Shown here one piece after another: positions 15,501 through 24,500 of a stretch of DNA of 64,000 nucleotides. The stretch spans positions 448,001 to 512,000 of the forward strand of contig JBMNEZ010000001.1 of assembly GCA_050949045.1 (NCBI GenBank), given 5' to 3'. The stretch is from Candidatus Izemoplasmatales bacterium. GTDB lineage: Bacteria; Bacillota_I; Bacilli_A; Izemoplasmatales; Hujiaoplasmataceae. The position numbers were made by a program. Numbering within the stretch: position 1 is the stretch's first letter; each line of letters starts with the position of its first letter.

Positions 15501-18500
15501 GATGAAGGGGAATTTGAAAAAGGATTCTGATTATGGCAACACCGATCATGATACCGAAAAAAGCAGCCACCATCACCACGAGAGCGACTTGCTTGACATC
15601 GCCCTGGGTAATCATCTCTGCCATATTGCCGACAATCATCAAGTCGGGTTCGGCGATTGTGATCAGAAAGCCGAGCACGAAAGAGCCACAGATAATGATC
15701 CAGATGTTTTTGGATTTTGCGATCGTCTTTCCAAAGAGTTCGCCAACCGGGCTGATGCCTACTTCGACGCCGAAGAGGAAGATGCTGAGGCCGATCCAGA
15801 CAAAGAAGGCACCGAGAAAAAAGCGTCCTAACATCCCTGGTTCGAGCGGTTCGACGAACAGATGGATCATGGTGACGACGACGATTATCGGTAGTATCGA
15901 AAAAAAGACTTCTTTTAGTTTTTTGCCAAGTTCTTGCAAAGTGCTCCGCCTCTTTCTCTAAATATCGTAACTGACTTGACTGTCATTTCCAGTAATTGCT
16001 TTCAAGTTTCACTTTAAGTCCGTTGTTGGTCAAAAAGCGGAAGAAAACAGTCTCTAAACTCTTGTCCTGATAATTGCTCGTGAAGGCGATCGCCGCCTGA
16101 TTGTTCAAGGTTACACACGCAATTCCGGGTTTTGACCCCGAGGCAAGATTGAAGAAAATGCTCTTGATTTCATTTGTCATCGTTTTTGGAAAGGTGATTT
16201 CACCGAAATTAGTGAAGGAAGAGGTAATCGGCTTATGGGCGATGATGGAATAACCGATCTTCATTAACAATTTTTTCAGAAACAAAGGCATGATCCTGAT
16301 CAAAAAGTTTTTTTCAAACGACATGTTATGGTTGAGTTTGTTTTGTAGGTGTTCTTTGGTGAGGCCAACCGCAAAATCGCTTTTGATTTTCTCGAGAACA
16401 GCATCGAAAGTGATGCCTTCGGCGTATTGGTATGCGGTGTTGAAATAAAGCGAGAAGTTGCGCAATGATTTTGAGGGGAAGTGTCGCCTGAGATTAACCG
16501 CCACACTGACCGTTACCGGATGTTTCAGAAGTTTTTTCTGATCGCCGGTCAGGATGATAGAAAAGAGCAGATTGGCAGCCAAAAATTGCGAAACGCTTGC
16601 GCCGTAGCTTCTGGCCACTTCTTTCAACTTGGCGGCGTCGACCAAACCGGTGTTGATGCTGATGCCTTTTCTTTTGTAGTTTTTGCCGGTTATGTGGTAA
16701 GCGGGGATGAAAGAGTCTTTTATAATCTTTCCTTCTTTATAATAGACTTTATAACTGTCCACCAATTCCTCTTGATCCGGCAGATCGTCAAGTTTGAAGA
16801 CAGTGCCATCATTCACCTGGGGTTTGCCCATCGACTCAAGATACTTGAAAATGACAGCTTTGAGAAACTCGAGAGCTCCACTGCCGTCTGCCAGAGAGTG
16901 AAACATTTCCATAGATATCTTGGTTTCATGAAAGAAGAAAGTGAATAAATGATGATTGTTAGAATGGACATTGATGCTTTGACAGATATAAGGTGATTCG
17001 GGGAAAACCAAGGGATCCTTTTCGTTGGTATCGTAATAATACCAGAAAAAGCCACGCCTAAGTCTCACAAAAAAGGAAGGGAATCTGTTTTTACAGGCAA
17101 GAATCGCTTCCTTCAGTTTCATAGGATCGACCAATTCCTTCATATTGACAGACATCCGGAAAAGGCCTGAGGTCTTAGCACTATGAATTATTGGATAGAT
17201 CTTAGCAGCGTTGTCGAGCTTGAACCAACGTTTTTCGGTAATTGCTTCTTTGATCATCAGGCAGTCACTTTCTTTCCCATACAAAGGCATTATATAAAAA
17301 AAACCAATTATTGTAAAGCGTGTCAATATGTTTATTTCCCAAAACGATTTAAGGAATCAGACATAAATCGTTAATAATAATTAAAGAGTTTGATGCGATA
17401 TATTAATATACAAGGGATAAATTATTGTAGACAATCATTTATAAAAACGCCATTTGAATATCAATAATTGATGTCTTTTTTTGTCTTCAAATGATCGTTT
17501 ATAAGAAATAATCAAAAAAAACAAAATAATTGTTTACAACTCGATATGTAATCAGTTATAATATAACCAGTTTATGCATAAACAGTATATGCATAACGTG
17601 AATATGCAAAAACAATTTATATATAAACATCTTATATAGTGAAGGGGGTGAGGTAATGACGAATTCCGGCGAATACATCAGGGGATTCACCGATTTCATT
17701 GTATTGTCAATCCTTTCAAAGTTCGACAGCTACGGTTATGAGATGAGCAAGATTATCGAGAGCGTCAGTGATCAATCGTTGCAAGTCACGGAAGCAGCGC
17801 TCTATTTTGCATTGAAGAGACTGATGGAAGACGATAAGATTGATTCTTATCGACGAAAAAATAAAAAGGGCATGAACCGGCGTTATTACCGCATTACTCC
17901 CGAAGGCGAAAAGGCGCTGAAGGATTTTCGCAAGGACTGGGTTTTGATCGAGAGCACATTGTCGAGCCTAGTTGGCGGCAAGTTCGAATATACACGGGAA
18001 GATAGTTTGGAGTAGGAGTGATATTGATGGATCTATTCAACATTATACCGGCGAATTTCTTCAATCTATTGACCGGTAAAAACCAAAACATGTATGTTAA
18101 CGCCCTCTTCCAGGTTTTTAAGGCCTATGAACAAGGGTCGGTGCTTGGGATGGACAAGCAGATTGCACAACAGGCAATCATTGATTTTTTAGAGATGAAT
18201 CCCGATCTTGAAGTCGATGATGTCGACTTTGACGCGACGGTCAGAGACAAGGCCAATCAGATTTTGAGGCGTTTCGAGGAATGTGAGTGGATTGACATCG
18301 ATGTCAACAACGACTATGTCGAGATCCTCAACTTCCGTGATTACGCGATCACAATCATCGAAGCCTTGAAAGAAATCACGACCGACACCGGCTATGGCTA
18401 CAGCGATGAAACACACGAGTTTCGCGGTTACATCTTCACCGCGTATTCGCTTTTGATGAACGACCATGGCGAATACGCGATGGTCATCGATCAAGTCTAC

Positions 18501-21500: not shown

Positions 21501-24500
21501 ATTGTCGAGCCTCGCTACTTCGATGTCGCTTTGAGAATCTACAACCAGATCAAGGACAATCTCAAAATTTACAACATCGGCCTTGTGAACACCAAGAAAA
21601 TCCAACACTTCAACAATCCCGAAGCGAATTCTCTAGCGACGATCATCGTCTCTGACAATATCGATGCCAAACACTTTGTGAACATGATCTGTGGTAACTT
21701 GATCATGGTGGATGCAGTCGAGAATCTCGAGAATCACCCGCAGGCGATTACCAGGGACGGGATGATTTACCGTTCTTATACGGTGAGAAGCCTGAATCGC
21801 AACACCGAAAAGCCGTTCATCGGTAAAAGAGCTCATGAGGAACAAACCGAGAAATGGCGCCATCAAGCCAAAAAATGCAAGGAAGAATTCCAGCATATCC
21901 AAAATAGGCTCCAACGGCTCGAGGAAGAGACAGGCGCCATCGCAGGCCTCGGTATCCCGGGTCTAGTTGAAATGATGGCCCAGACCCGCTCGCTCGCAGA
22001 GCTTAAGGACAAACGCAAGGAGCTCTCCCTCAAGAAACAAAACGTTCCGAAGGAAAGCATGAACCAATTGCGGCTCGAATACGAGGCGATCAAGGAAGAG
22101 ACCAGAGGCTATGCCAACAATCGCCGCAAGGCCTATGAAGAAAACGGCAAACTCCAATCCGACGATTTCAAGATCCAAGAAGAGATCCTCGCGCTCGAGA
22201 CCAGGCTCAATCTTCTCCAGCAGGAAATTGTTCTGCTCGCCAGCGAGAATCTGACGATGGAGGCCGAGGCCAACGAACTTTACAAACAAGAGATCCTCAA
22301 CGCTCCTGACAAGAAGAAAGTCGTCCAGCAATATCAGTTGCGGATCGAGACCGAACTCCAAAACCTGATCAACCTCGAAGACGATCTCAAAGCCAAGCAG
22401 TTCAAGTACACAAGCACTTATAATCTTAGTTATTCTTTCGGCTTTGAGTATATGGCGGAATACCTGCAGGAAATGGACAAACTCGTCAAAAGCGAACTGA
22501 TCAAGTATGAAACCAAAGTCAGAGAAGCGAGAGAAGTCGCCGAGAGACTGTTTAAGGAAGATTTTCTCGCCAAACTCAGGAACTATATCGTCAGCGCTCA
22601 GGAAGAGATCAAAAAGATCAATGATACCCTGCAAACGATCAAGTTCGGGGAAGACACTTACGAGTTCATCTTCCCGAAGAGCAAGGAATACGGCGACTAC
22701 TATGATATGGTCCTTGCGGACGAGTCGATGAAGAGCGGCGGTGAGATCTTCAACTACGAATTCGAAATGAAGTATCAGCGTCAACTTGAGGAACTATTCA
22801 TCAACCTTGCATCAAGCGACCTCAATGATCAGGGCACCATTAACAAATTCACCGACTACCGCACCTATATGGACTACGATATCAAAATCAAGAACAACCG
22901 CGGCGATGTCATCCTCTATTCCAAAGTATTTAAGGAGAAATCCGGTGGTGAGACTCAGGTACCCTTCTACGTAGCGACGCTGGCTTCCTTTGTCCGGGTT
23001 TTCCAACAAGCCCAGCGCGGGAATGTCAACGATGCGATCGGCCTGATTCTCTTCGATGAGGTCTTCGACAAGATGGATACCTCGAGAATCAAATCGATGA
23101 TGGAATTCATCCAGTGCCTTCCGGTCCAGATCATCCTGGCGACTCCGCCCCAAAAGATGGAGGTTCTGAGCAAATATACGGATACGACAGTGGTTACCCT
23201 CCGAGAAGGACGGGCCGCAAGAGCCTACGAAGTTGTCCAAAAATACTAAATGTAAAAAATAGCTGAGAGATCGGCTATTTTTTACATAGAGCGACTGATT
23301 TATGATATTATATGCTGAGGTGAACTGAACATGCAGAGATATTTCGTCGAGCCAGCCAATATCATTGACAATGAGGTCACGATTCAGGGACCGGATGTCC
23401 ATCACATCAGGAATGTGATGCGTTTTTCGATCGGTGATTCCCTCGGCATTTGTCCAAACGACGGTACGCTTCGCCTTGCACGGATAACCGCCATTGAAAA
23501 AAGCAAAGTCACGGCGGCGATCTTCAAGACAATCATCGAGAATCAACCTGAACATAAGATCACAATCGCTCAAGCTCTGATCAGAAAAGACCGGTTCGAA
23601 TGGTTTTTGGAGAAAGCGACCGAACTCGGAGTAACCAAAATCATCCCCACCAGGTTCGCACGTTCGATCGTTCAAATTGATGAAAACAAAAGTACGGCAA
23701 AGCTGGAAAGGTACCGGATGATCGTCAAAGAGGCTAGCGAGCAGTCCGAGCGGAATGTGATGCCTTTGATCACCGCGTTCACCGATCTTCCCGATATCGA
23801 TTATTCCAGATACGATATGATATTCTATGCTTCAGAAAGAGATCAGAAAGCATCGCTGATTCGAGATGTGCTCGCTAAACATCTCAAAAGCGGAAAATAC
23901 CTCTTCTTGGTCGGGCCCGAAGGCGGCATCACCGACGATGAAGTCAGCTTGCTTGAGGCAAAAGGGGCGATCCCGATTTCCCTAGGCAGCCGGATCCTTC
24001 GTTCTGAAACCGCAGGCATCATGGTGATGTCGGCGATTCTGAGTCAGTGGGGTGAGTAGGATGAAAGTCCGGCTTGTCACCCTTGGCTGCAAGGTGAATA
24101 CCTATGAGAGCGAAGCCGTCGCTGAACTGCTTGAGGCTAGAGACTATGAGATAATCGAGAAGGGCAAGGCCGATGTCTATATCGTCAACTCCTGCATGGT
24201 GACCGCCACCGCCGAGCAGAAATCACGCCAACAGATCCGCCGTTTGTTTCGGGAAAACCAAGAGGGTGTGATCGTCGTGATGGGCTGTCTTTCCGCTCTC
24301 AAACCGGAAGAAATCGCCGCGATTGACGGCGTCGTGATCACGATCGGCACCAAGGATCGGGACAAGATCCCCGATCTTTTGGACGTATACTTTAAAAATA
24401 AAGAGCGGTTCAGACCGCAAAGAGCCGACTTGGTTTCCTCTCAATATGACAATCTGAGCCTGACATCATTTCGAAGTCACCAGCGCGCTTTTCTCAAAAT

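Follow-up and report, generated by a model that had tools for sequence, protein, structure and literature searches.

The genome of this wall-less Izemoplasmatales bacterium (Hujiaoplasmataceae) has no detectable Smc-ScpAB and keeps a nuclease-free jetABC as a core operon, so the encoded complex most likely organises the bacterium's own chromosome. We infer that jetABC probably encodes a domesticated condensin of the MksBEF or MukBEF kind that extrudes loops. The window analysed here is a stretch of 64,000 nucleotides (contig JBMNEZ010000001.1, positions 448,001 to 512,000), and coordinates are counted from its first letter.

Operon structure and protein identity

Four genes on the forward strand follow each other closely. 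The first, padR (17656-18015), encodes a 119-aa PadR-family winged-helix regulator and stops 2 nt before the start of jetA (18018-19421; 467 aa), which encodes an MksF-like kleisin. jetA overlaps by 4 nt with jetB (19418-20023; 201 aa; MksE-like KITE subunit), and jetB by 17 nt with jetC (20007-23249; 1080 aa; MksB-like SMC ATPase). The interval 17656-23249 given in an earlier note on this DNA is exact.

In Pfam, PadR matches PF03551 (1e-16, 74 of 75 profile positions), JetA matches PF18982 (2.1e-73, profile positions 2-433 of 434), JetB matches DUF4194 (1.8e-27), and JetC contains AAA_29 and SbcC_Walker_B domains. Two further matches are under the model cut-offs, namely TIGR03433 for PadR (1.8e-19) and a weak Pfam match to PF21980 (MksE) for JetB (7.4e-5). 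PADLOC recovers each Jet protein over its full length, as JetA1 (2.7e-107), JetB1 (1.3e-62) and JetC1 (8.4e-299), and no MukB, MukE or MukF family is found for the three proteins in a Pfam scan at E<=1e-3. The closest solved chain to JetC by sequence is the JetC of 8DK1 (6.7e-11, N-terminal head), and JetA and JetB match no solved chain by sequence. The Walker A (G30QNATGKST38), signature (S979GGE982) and Walker B (LILFD1017E1018) motifs of JetC are intact. Pfam, PADLOC and motif reading thus confirm the assignment of the three proteins and the intact ATPase described before.

The gap between jetC and rsmE is only 81 nt (23250-23330) and holds no gene for JetD; across the whole genome, neither JetD_C nor DUF3322 (the JetD N-terminal family) is matched at E<=1, in agreement with the earlier claim that JetD is missing. 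Judged by sequence, padR-jetA-jetB-jetC reads as a tight operon that encodes a type I Wadjet core without its nuclease.

Absence of Smc-ScpAB

The genome consists of one contig (1,356,138 bp, no N, 98.31% complete, 44% GC). SMC_hinge has no match in it at E<=1, and searches for ScpA and ScpB are empty. The best match of the genome to TIGR02168, the full-length SMC model, is JetC itself, at 41-43 bits against a cut-off of 567 bits, and SbcC_Walker_B is found only in JetC and in a 366-aa frame of RecF size. RecN and SbcC-type proteins are not detectable, while ParB is present. JetC is therefore the sole long SMC-class ATPase of this genome, and the reported absence of Smc, ScpA and ScpB holds.

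The SMC absence could still be an artefact of a missed divergent gene or an assembly gap, in which case JetABC would exist beside a second system, the situation in Pseudomonas. Most genomes are draft MAGs, and two findings among the relatives would fit. SMC_hinge is matched in 2 of the 158 genomes of the order, as claimed (0 of 70 other genomes of the family; 1 of 77 of the family f2); the first match lies within a JetC gene, and the second, in an f2 genome, is a full SMC that is the only gene on an unanchored 4.6-kb contig. The other finding is an SMC-like frame, longer than 1335 aa, in the congener G028. However, this frame exceeds the length of bacterial SMC, and its 4-kb contig has 54% GC against 44% in the window's genome; we read the contig as mis-binned, which we cannot prove. 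Moreover, none of the 62 high-quality genomes of the order has an anchored SMC, but the same searches detect SMC in every genome of four other families (23, 30, 14 and 12 genomes). With two SMC models, ScpA and ScpB all empty in a one-contig genome, an artefact is highly improbable.

Promoter and putative PadR operator

A promoter-like site (17533-17562, forward strand) lies upstream of padR, with a -35 element TTTACA (17533-17538), an 18-nt spacer and a -10 element TATAAT (17557-17562), and matches the consensus at 11 of 12 positions. TATAAT is found in 15 of 16 family promoters, the window's included, and by eye the arrangement TTTACA...TATAATATAA is seen upstream of padR in 15 other family loci. 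Between the -10 element and the ribosome-binding site there is an array of 10-bp near-palindromic boxes (17572-17626, forward strand; consensus TTATRYATAA), a putative PadR operator. Clear copies begin at positions 17572, 17587 and 17617, and a weaker copy begins at 17601. All 16 family promoters contain 2-4 such boxes, mostly spaced by 15 or 30 nt, while AT-rich control windows average 0.16 hits and hold two or more in 79 of 1133 cases. In the 1.36-Mb genome, the box cluster is unique to the operon promoter.

PadR is encoded upstream of jetA in all 15 family loci examined (57-80% identical) and in none of 4 loci of f3, a second family of the order. The conserved promoter and phased boxes point to PadR autoregulation: a single promoter would transcribe jetABC together with its own repressor, which may bind the boxes just past the -10 element, repress its own synthesis and set the dose of the complex. 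Contigs from four RNA libraries cover padR, jetA, jetB and jetC like the neighbouring genes, a weak indication of expression as DNA carry-over is possible.

Genomic context and inheritance

Downstream of jetC and outside the system, the forward-strand context genes (23331-34502; Pfam) are rsmE, mtaB, rpsU, phoH, ybeY, cdd, era, recO, a class II tRNA synthetase gene, dnaG and rpoD, and a reverse-strand 230-aa ORF sits between mtaB and rpsU. The gene order padR-jetABC-rsmE...rpoD is identical, up to contig ends, in 15 of 15 loci of 14 family genomes. The GC3 of the operon (0.64-0.65) falls within that of the neighbour genes (0.58-0.69), while an island of defence and toxin-antitoxin genes with low GC, located 14 kb from the operon at 37-44 kb of the window, has a GC3 of 0.10-0.18. 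The host-like GC3 points to a long residence of the operon.

The near-universal presence of JetA in the family was reproduced (68 of 70 other genomes), as were the values for f3 (9 of 10) and f2 (0 of 77); one of the two JetA-negative family genomes has JetC, split over contig ends. The JetC tree recovers each family as well as all 6 genera represented by more than one row. The dN values of jetA, jetB and jetC (0.06-0.17) are similar to those of era, glyS and phoH (0.08-0.14) and 2-4 times below those of rsmE, recO and dnaG. The operon is thus inherited vertically at a fixed core-genome site and under housekeeping-level constraint.

These data bear on two other readings. Since JetD is missing, the operon might be a decaying Wadjet remnant with no present function, but its frames are intact at all loci examined, conservation extends to the promoter and putative operator, dN is at the low level of era or glyS, and in an alignment of 61 JetC sequences 61 columns are at least 95% conserved, with the ATPase motifs among them and kept in every sequence. 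The probability of a remnant is close to negligible. The second reading is a narrower SMC role in chromosome maintenance, such as double-strand-break repair, sister cohesion in repair, or the handling of replication and decatenation. Such roles are known for SMC-class complexes elsewhere, the operon lies near recO, dnaG and stress-operon genes, and RecN and SbcC-type proteins are missing from the window's genome. However, RecN is found in 66 of 70 family genomes, in all 9 congeners and in 74 of 77 genomes of the JetA-less f2, so RecN and JetA show no complementary pattern; and according to passages of two studies, the Wadjet-group complexes investigated to date work by extruding loops on whole molecules (PMC10586767, PMC7617805). 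We regard a role restricted to maintenance as quite unlikely, and prefer a probable condensin acting on the chromosome, for which core synteny, vertical descent, dN and GC3 are indirect support.

SMC loss and JetABC in the wider class

Of the 29 families in a sample of the class, 12 are without SMC. Counted over 250 genomes that are at least 90% complete, JetA is found in 56 of 123 genomes of the SMC-less families versus 12 of 127 genomes of the SMC-bearing ones, an association that is suggestive only because kin are not independent. Six SMC-less families carry nuclease-free JetABC in every sampled genome. Such operons of SMC-less families belong to at least three JetC lineages: the window's family with f3 and f28; f25 and f26 with part of f10; f15; and perhaps f5 as another. 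Nuclease-free JetABC without SMC is not special to Izemoplasmatales: beyond this order, five of the SMC-less families have it, from other JetC lineages, and three of the five have it in every sampled genome. JetA is carried by only part of f10 (7 of 23 genomes) and f5 (4 of 6), and is absent from f12 (0 of 15), f19 (0 of 14) and f20 (0 of 3). Together with f2, in which TIGR02168 is above its cut-off in 0 of 26 genomes, four SMC-less families therefore have no JetA either. Some relatives can thus do without an SMC-class complex, and SMC loss does not force a replacement, so JetABC may be kept for another reason; the caveat of the earlier note about a dispensable condensin stands and reaches wider than stated there.

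Complete JetABCD copies also exist in these lineages. JetD_C is above its cut-off in 1 of the 158 genomes of the order, as reported, and in none of the 10 genomes by which the family is represented in the class sample. The sole family genome with JetD (G048) has it on a second, divergent JetABCD copy, with proteins that share 26-32% identity with the window's, in addition to a syntenic nuclease-free copy. Besides G048, three more genomes that hold the operon also carry a full JetABCD. The true JetABCD copies of the class (26-37% identical) lie on other tree branches. The JetD-linked JetC proteins of two different families are 86.7% identical, while the nuclease-free copies of the same families are 26% identical, which indicates that defence copies move horizontally and nuclease-free copies do not.

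The complex could nevertheless still defend against plasmids or other episomes without JetD, by entrapping, silencing or mis-segregating small circles, or through an unlinked or unrecognised effector. Every model assigns the sequences to type I Wadjet, control by PadR would fit an inducible system, and SMC-less relatives without JetABC exist, which means that loss of SMC can be borne without the operon; passages on eukaryotic Smc5/6 also offer a precedent for nuclease-independent restriction, of viral episomes (PMC10586767). Against this stand the distribution and descent of the operon. Defence systems are mobile and patchily distributed, whereas the operon occupies one site in 68-69 of 70 genomes, has the GC3 of its host and shows dN at housekeeping level. 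A defence role would also be redundant in the genomes that acquire a full JetABCD (G048 and three others). No JetD-like domain occurs anywhere in the window's genome, neither the 15 family loci nor the 9 representative loci scanned have a nuclease family next to the operon, and a BLAST query with JetD from the same family gave no match in the 15 family loci. We consider a defence role unlikely. The JetC tree, dN, GC3 and the separate JetABCD copy support the proposal of the earlier note that the operon encodes the condensin of the lineage rather than an anti-plasmid island, the function being what we infer from them.

Proposed mechanism and origin

In most bacteria the chromosome is folded by Smc-ScpAB, and in some by MukBEF or MksBEF; solved and reconstituted JetABC and MukBEF complexes extrude loops by ATP hydrolysis. 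In the condensin model, JetC would form a dimeric SMC-like ATPase, JetA would be the kleisin that bridges its heads, and JetB would act as a KITE dimer. The complex would load on the chromosome and extrude DNA loops by ATP hydrolysis like JetABC and MukBEF, and with the nuclease absent, sister chromosomes would be compacted and individualised while the DNA stays uncut. In this way it could take over the job of Smc-ScpAB.

More tentatively, and with somewhat less than even confidence, we suggest that, after Smc-ScpAB was lost in wall-less relatives of the Bacilli, a nuclease-free Wadjet core became the sole chromosomal loop extruder on three or more separate occasions, with f2, f12, f19 and f20 left without any SMC-class complex. 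These fixations may represent MukBEF-like origins at an earlier stage, still type I Wadjet, with PadR dosing the motor in the window's family. If true, these lineages form a natural series on how a plasmid-killing SMC turns into a condensin, and the same series asks what lets a bacterium live without one.

Comparison with known systems

Compared with type I Wadjet JetABCD (E. coli GF4-3, P. aeruginosa PA14), the operon shares the three core families, the gene order and the intact ATPase motifs, but lacks JetD, both locally and genome-wide, and is neither mobile nor patchy. Unlike in Smc-ScpAB bacteria, there is no canonical-hinge SMC, ScpA or ScpB in the window's genome.

Nuclease-free "FEB" operons are already catalogued, and what is new here is the SMC-less context and the recurrence. 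Passages of Burmann et al. 2025 mention "several other Wadjet group members" without MksG/JetD, and Data S1 lists Anaeroplasma bactoclasticum and several "Tenericutes bacterium" assemblies with the operon structure FEB (PMC7617805). For example, the F, E and B genes of GWF2_57_13 (1404, 606 and 3243 nt) have the same lengths as those in the window (PMC7617805). Neither Izemoplasma nor Acholeplasma is a name among the catalogue entries listed, and the passages of that paper used here contain no discussion of these lineages, the missing Smc-ScpAB, the PadR link or synteny (PMC7617805).

Mycobacterial MksB is an Mks-type protein to which chromosome organisation is reportedly assigned, while a separate paralogue, EptC, serves defence (PMC11329512); unlike the window's complex, it coexists with SMC. 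Like the window's operon, MksBEF of P. aeruginosa is a three-gene kleisin-KITE-SMC operon without MksG/JetD; it is described, in the part of the source used, as acting on the chromosome, where it establishes long-range contacts in cis and supports segregation (10.1101/2020.05.18.101659). However, Pseudomonas retains Smc-ScpAB, which is not detectable in the window's genome, and the window's proteins score as type I Wadjet, with a padR gene and a putative operator leading the operon.

MukBEF of Escherichia coli and relatives is presented in passages of PMC10586767 and PMC7617805 as a Wadjet-group complex without nuclease that replaced Smc-ScpAB as sole condensin of a lineage. As in MukBEF bacteria, JetABC is the sole SMC-class complex, and Smc-ScpAB is lost according to the genome searches, with no hinge in the 70 other family genomes. 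Unlike MukBEF, it matches no MukB, MukE or MukF and gives just a weak MksE hit, and ParB is kept, while most MukBEF lineages are said, in the part of the source used, to lack ParABS (10.1101/2020.05.18.101659). Here, moreover, the replacement would have taken place in wall-less lineages derived from Bacillota, and it recurs across three or more lineages of JetC.

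Operon genes and their neighbourhood

Four closely packed genes, padR, jetA, jetB and jetC, occupy positions 17656–23249 on the forward strand. PadR (119 aa) has a full-length Pfam match. The kleisin gene jetA (467 aa) starts 2 nt past the padR stop and matches PF18982 (E-value 2.1e-73) and, over full length, the PADLOC model JetA1 (2.7e-107). It is followed, with a 4-nt overlap, by the KITE subunit gene jetB (201 aa; DUF4194; PADLOC JetB1 1.3e-62, full length) and, with a 17-nt overlap, by jetC, which encodes an SMC-like ATPase of 1080 aa (PADLOC JetC1 8.4e-299, full length). 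JetC retains its ATPase motifs (Walker A G30QNATGKST, signature S979GGE, Walker B LILFD1017E1018), and they belong to the 61 columns with conservation of 95% or more across an alignment of 61 JetC sequences of the class. In a sequence search of solved structures, the JetC head gives a weak match only, and zero matches were found for JetA and JetB.

The idea that a docking motif for the Wadjet nuclease JetD at the JetB N-terminus was lost from nuclease-free copies was prompted by two studies (PMC10586767; 10.1101/2023.11.03.565488), and ‘IFDR’ was not found in the text of the latter. No clean difference was found in an alignment of 40 JetB N-termini.

Downstream of jetC, Pfam matches identify rsmE, mtaB, rpsU, phoH, ybeY, cdd, era, recO, a class II tRNA synthetase gene, dnaG and rpoD, which we take to be the conserved dnaK...sigA gene string of Bacillus-type genomes. 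Between mtaB and rpsU lies a reverse-strand ORF of 230 aa (25357–26049) without Pfam or NCBIfam family, found at the same position in 14 of 15 loci from the window's family (f1, Hujiaoplasmataceae), while the 15th contig stops short of it. Another reverse-strand ORF (15983–17326; 447 aa), in a stretch of lower GC (0.39) shortly before the padR promoter, has no Pfam or NCBIfam family and no BLAST match in the 15 f1 loci.

The jetC-rsmE gap, which is 0.4–1.4 kb long in 8 of the f1 loci, was considered as the place of an extra subunit. This was rejected, and the window carries no insertion there. Seven of these gaps (L063, L064, L067, L068, L070, L071 and L072) hold an ORF of about 155 aa on the reverse strand, whose product has a CxxC motif and a lipoprotein-like signal peptide; L067 additionally has a 150-aa ORF, and the eighth gap holds a short GC-rich stretch.

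SMC-class proteins of the genome

The genome is a single contig (1,356,138 bp, no N, 98.31% complete) and was searched with profiles in six frames. The earlier note held that it lacks Smc, ScpA and ScpB and that JetABC without JetD is its sole SMC-class complex, and these searches bear this out: there is no SMC hinge at E<=1, no ScpA or ScpB, and neither the C-terminal nor the N-terminal JetD family. TIGR02168, the full-length SMC model, scores highest on the coiled coil of JetC itself, with 41 bits where the cut-off is 567. SbcC_Walker_B matches JetC and a RecF-size frame only, and SMC_N matches the RecF-size frame and ABC transporters. Because the SMC-model, SbcC_Walker_B and SMC_N searches gave no other candidate, JetC is the only long SMC-class ATPase of the genome. 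ParB is present.

No recN was found in the genome at E<=0.01, and no SbcC-type frame either. recN is present in each of the 9 remaining genomes of the genus and in 147 of 158 of the order. Its absence here reflects either a loss in this genome alone or a gap in the one-contig assembly. Complementarity between RecN and JetABC was rejected, as recN occurs in 66 of 70 f1 genomes and in 74 of 77 of the JetA-less family f2 of the same order. A narrower role of JetABC in repair or replication, which may be weighed at this point, seems to us quite improbable.

Distribution in the order

The earlier counts over 158 genomes of Izemoplasmatales were reproduced: an SMC hinge in 2 of 158, JetA in 68 of 70 other f1 genomes, 0 of 77 f2 genomes and 9 of 10 genomes of family f3, and JetD_C over cut-off in 1 of 158. 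One of the two hinge matches sits within the JetC gene of an f3 genome. The second match, to a full bacterial SMC of 1006 bits, stands alone on a contig of 4,576 bp (L179; G137:C29). In the congener G028, an SMC-like frame of more than 1335 aa without hinge match fills a contig of 4,044 bp (L182; G028:C9), open at both ends, with a GC content of 54% versus 44% in the window's genome. Both SMC-like contigs are possibly mis-binned, and for that of G028 this seems to us the probable reading.

As for the genomes without a JetA match, one of the two in f1 has a JetC split across two contig ends, the second has no JetC either (86% complete, 230 contigs), and the f3 genome has its JetC at a contig end. 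Long coiled-coil frames of the JetA-less f2 were considered as hidden SMC proteins and rejected: one turned out to be a solute-binding surface protein and another SbcC-like, and the recurrent frames of 560 aa are RecN.

Synteny, constraint and residence

From the order, 20 loci were fetched, picked for long contigs, including 15 syntenic f1 loci from 14 genomes. The order padR-jetA-jetB-jetC-rsmE-mtaB...recO-tRNA synthetase-dnaG-rpoD is kept in 15 of 15, as far as the contigs extend. Identities to the window are 63–75% for JetA, 65–79% for JetB and 63–73% for JetC, which match those of Era (61–71%), PhoH (65–74%) and the synthetase (67–72%) and exceed those of RsmE (38–49%), RecO (34–48%) and DnaG (41–54%). 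In six closer genome pairs, dN of jetA, jetB and jetC is 0.06–0.17, at the level of era, glyS and phoH and 2–4 times below rsmE, recO and dnaG; dS is saturated in all six pairs (>1.2 or undefined), hence dN alone was used in place of dN/dS. In a maximum likelihood JetC tree (quick search, LG+G4, 61 rows), all six genera with more than one row are recovered, and f28, a family of the wider class sample, groups with the f3–f1 pair at 100% support.

GC3 of jetA, jetB and jetC is 0.64–0.65, compared with 0.58–0.69 for the neighbours and 0.10–0.18 for island genes at about 37–44 kb of the same window. From the fixed synteny, the vertical tree, the low dN and the host-like GC3 unlike that of the island, we agree with the earlier reading that the operon is not a defence island. 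An anti-episome role that does not depend on the nuclease, to be weighed against this residence, is considered unlikely.

The island itself (36000–46942; GC 0.27–0.37 against about 0.48 around) directly follows the trmK and NIF3-family genes that come after rpoD. It encodes a Schlafen/AlbA_2-HATPase_c_4-HTH protein (37259–38677), a Fic/DOC protein (39106–40044), a 196-aa ORF with an AbiEii toxin (42061–43512), an HTH-nucleotidyltransferase (43947–44417) and a 680-aa helicase C-domain protein (44900–46942). Its features suggest a defence and toxin-antitoxin island of recent acquisition. A second lower-GC stretch (48000–54000; 0.35–0.38) contains a 410-aa ORF without family (49205–50437) and two ABC exporter genes (51066–54708).

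Genomes with a JetD-bearing copy

G048, the only f1 genome with JetD, carries the syntenic nuclease-free operon on one contig and a complete jetABCD on a second, whose proteins are only 26–32% identical to those of the window. A nuclease-free copy and a separate JetABCD are likewise found in three genomes of other families. Complete jetABCD loci of two families, on short contigs of 7.2 and 13.3 kb (L090, G271:C47; L098, G316:C38), have JetC proteins that are 86.7% identical, while the nuclease-free JetC proteins of these families are 26% identical to each other. The former value suggests recent horizontal transfer of jetABCD between the two families. The 86.7% versus 26% identity, together with the separate JetABCD copies, indicates that defence-type copies move horizontally and nuclease-free copies track their hosts. 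In the SMC-less families, JetD_C was found in 4 genomes, on a second copy in each of the 3 whose loci were fetched, and in 0 of 21 genomes of f15.

Pattern across the class

We scored 250 genomes of the class with at least 90% completeness from 29 family codes (one further genome is unscored), and called a family SMC-less if neither the hinge model nor TIGR02168 at E<=1e-30 gave a match. This holds for 12 of 29 families (f1, f2, f3, f5, f10, f12, f15, f19, f20, f25, f26 and f28), with the exceptions of the G028 fragment and two weak hinge matches of f15 in JetC-size frames (1093 and 1104 aa), one of them about 2 kb downstream of that genome's jetA. JetA is present in every scored genome of f1 (10 of 10), f3 (2 of 2), f15 (21 of 21), f25 (4 of 4), f26 (2 of 2) and f28 (5 of 5), in part of f5 (4 of 6) and f10 (7 of 23), and in no genome of f2 (0 of 17), f12 (0 of 15), f19 (0 of 14) and f20 (0 of 3). 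Among the 17 SMC-bearing families it occurs only in f7 (9 of 10), f23 (2 of 6) and f24 (1 of 2). By genomes, JetA is found in 56 of 123 from SMC-less families versus 12 of 127 from SMC-bearing ones, an association that is suggestive only, because kin are not independent.

With 40 further chosen loci included, the JetC tree places the nuclease-free copies in at least three separate regions, as clades that are each specific to a family. A tree that keeps every JetD-linked copy on the same side of a single branch is rejected by an AU test (57 rows after removal of four long ones; lnL difference 200, p 1.6e-89), for a group that was chosen once the tree had been seen. The nuclease-free copies of the 40 loci adjoin housekeeping or metabolic genes, with leuS downstream in both f25 and f10. 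In the SMC-bearing f7, a nuclease-free jetABC lies 15–25 kb from smc in four genomes (L110, L111, L113 and L116) and forms its own clade, and the same genomes often carry jetABCD too. SMC, a nuclease-free core and a defence copy coexist there, as in Pseudomonas.

Promoter-like site, presumed PadR boxes and RNA contigs

A promoter-like site, TTTACA-18-TATAAT (17533–17562; 11 of 12 consensus matches), precedes padR and is followed by TTATRYATAA boxes at 17572 (a perfect 10-bp palindrome), 17587 and 17617 and a weaker one at 17601. All 16 promoters, from the window and 15 f1 loci, have 2–4 boxes in the 110 nt before the start codon, at spacings of mostly 15 or 30 nt, compared with a mean of 0.16 matches in AT-rich control windows of the same loci (two or more in 79 of 1133). 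Of the 12 TTATRYATAA sites in the whole genome, two lie within 60 nt of each other only at the padR promoter. Dispersed chromosomal loading sites were rejected as an explanation, since the boxes cluster at this promoter alone, which points to local autorepression through presumed binding of PadR. PadR is absent from the fetched loci of f3 and of all other families.

RNA contigs with at least 95% identity from four metatranscriptome libraries (X17–X20; four study codes, one year and habitat) cover padR/jetA (e.g. 18449–18710), the jetA/jetB junction (19285–19600), jetB/jetC (19865–20306) and several parts of jetC, as well as phoH, the synthetase and other neighbours; some bins, such as 22976–23509, have none. 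Such contigs may include DNA carry-over and show neither absence, level nor strand, and they give a weak hint that the operon is transcribed. In X18 and in X20, one contig joins 24098 to 24817 within mtaB across 718 skipped nt; the shorter side spans only 20 nt, and 255 nt stay loose at either end. This is most likely another organism's contig touching conserved radical-SAM sequence.

Proposed function and comparison with known systems

Taken together, the operon probably encodes a loop-extruding complex that has been domesticated, is dosed by PadR and organises the chromosome in place of the missing Smc-ScpAB; it would work like P. aeruginosa MksBEF and MukBEF. The main doubt about this condensin reading is that four SMC-less families have no JetABC, so that SMC-less bacteria can do without any SMC-class complex. 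Genome annotations should leave such loci out of their counts of anti-plasmid defence systems.

The operon bears on how defence SMC complexes relate to chromosome-folding ones. Reviews describe the replacement of Smc-ScpAB by MukBEF in enterobacteria, and a Wadjet ancestor that lost its nuclease has been proposed for both MukBEF and MksBEF (PMC10586767). Here the same conversion seems to recur in lineages whose sequences are still clearly those of type I Wadjet. These lineages offer no Smc-ScpAB to mask a phenotype, and sister families without any SMC-class complex are at hand.

Literature searches for Izemoplasma, Acholeplasma, Tenericutes and Mollicutes gave no paper on a loss of SMC or on Mks/Wadjet systems there, and none on JetABC as the only SMC-class complex of these lineages. 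The nearest named JetC relatives are Candidatus Izemoplasmatales records (60–86%), then Anaeroplasmataceae MAGs (43–48%), and the operon is present in the complete-chromosome records of Candidatus Izemoplasma sp. B36, Mycoplasmatota bacterium WC30 and strain zrk2 (JetC 63–66%).

Burmann et al. 2025 (PMC7617805) report several Wadjet-group members without MksG/JetD, with operons in Data S1. Among the rows listed, the nuclease-free (FEB) operons include Anaeroplasma bactoclasticum and several ‘Tenericutes bacterium’ assemblies, and none of the rows listed is named Izemoplasma or Acholeplasma. In one ‘Tenericutes bacterium’ row, the F, E and B gene lengths are exactly those of jetA, jetB and jetC here, a likeness by length only. 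The kind of system is already known, and the operon of this lineage is probably catalogued already; new are the SMC-less setting, the recurrence across families, the sister families free of both SMC and Jet, and the putative PadR operator.
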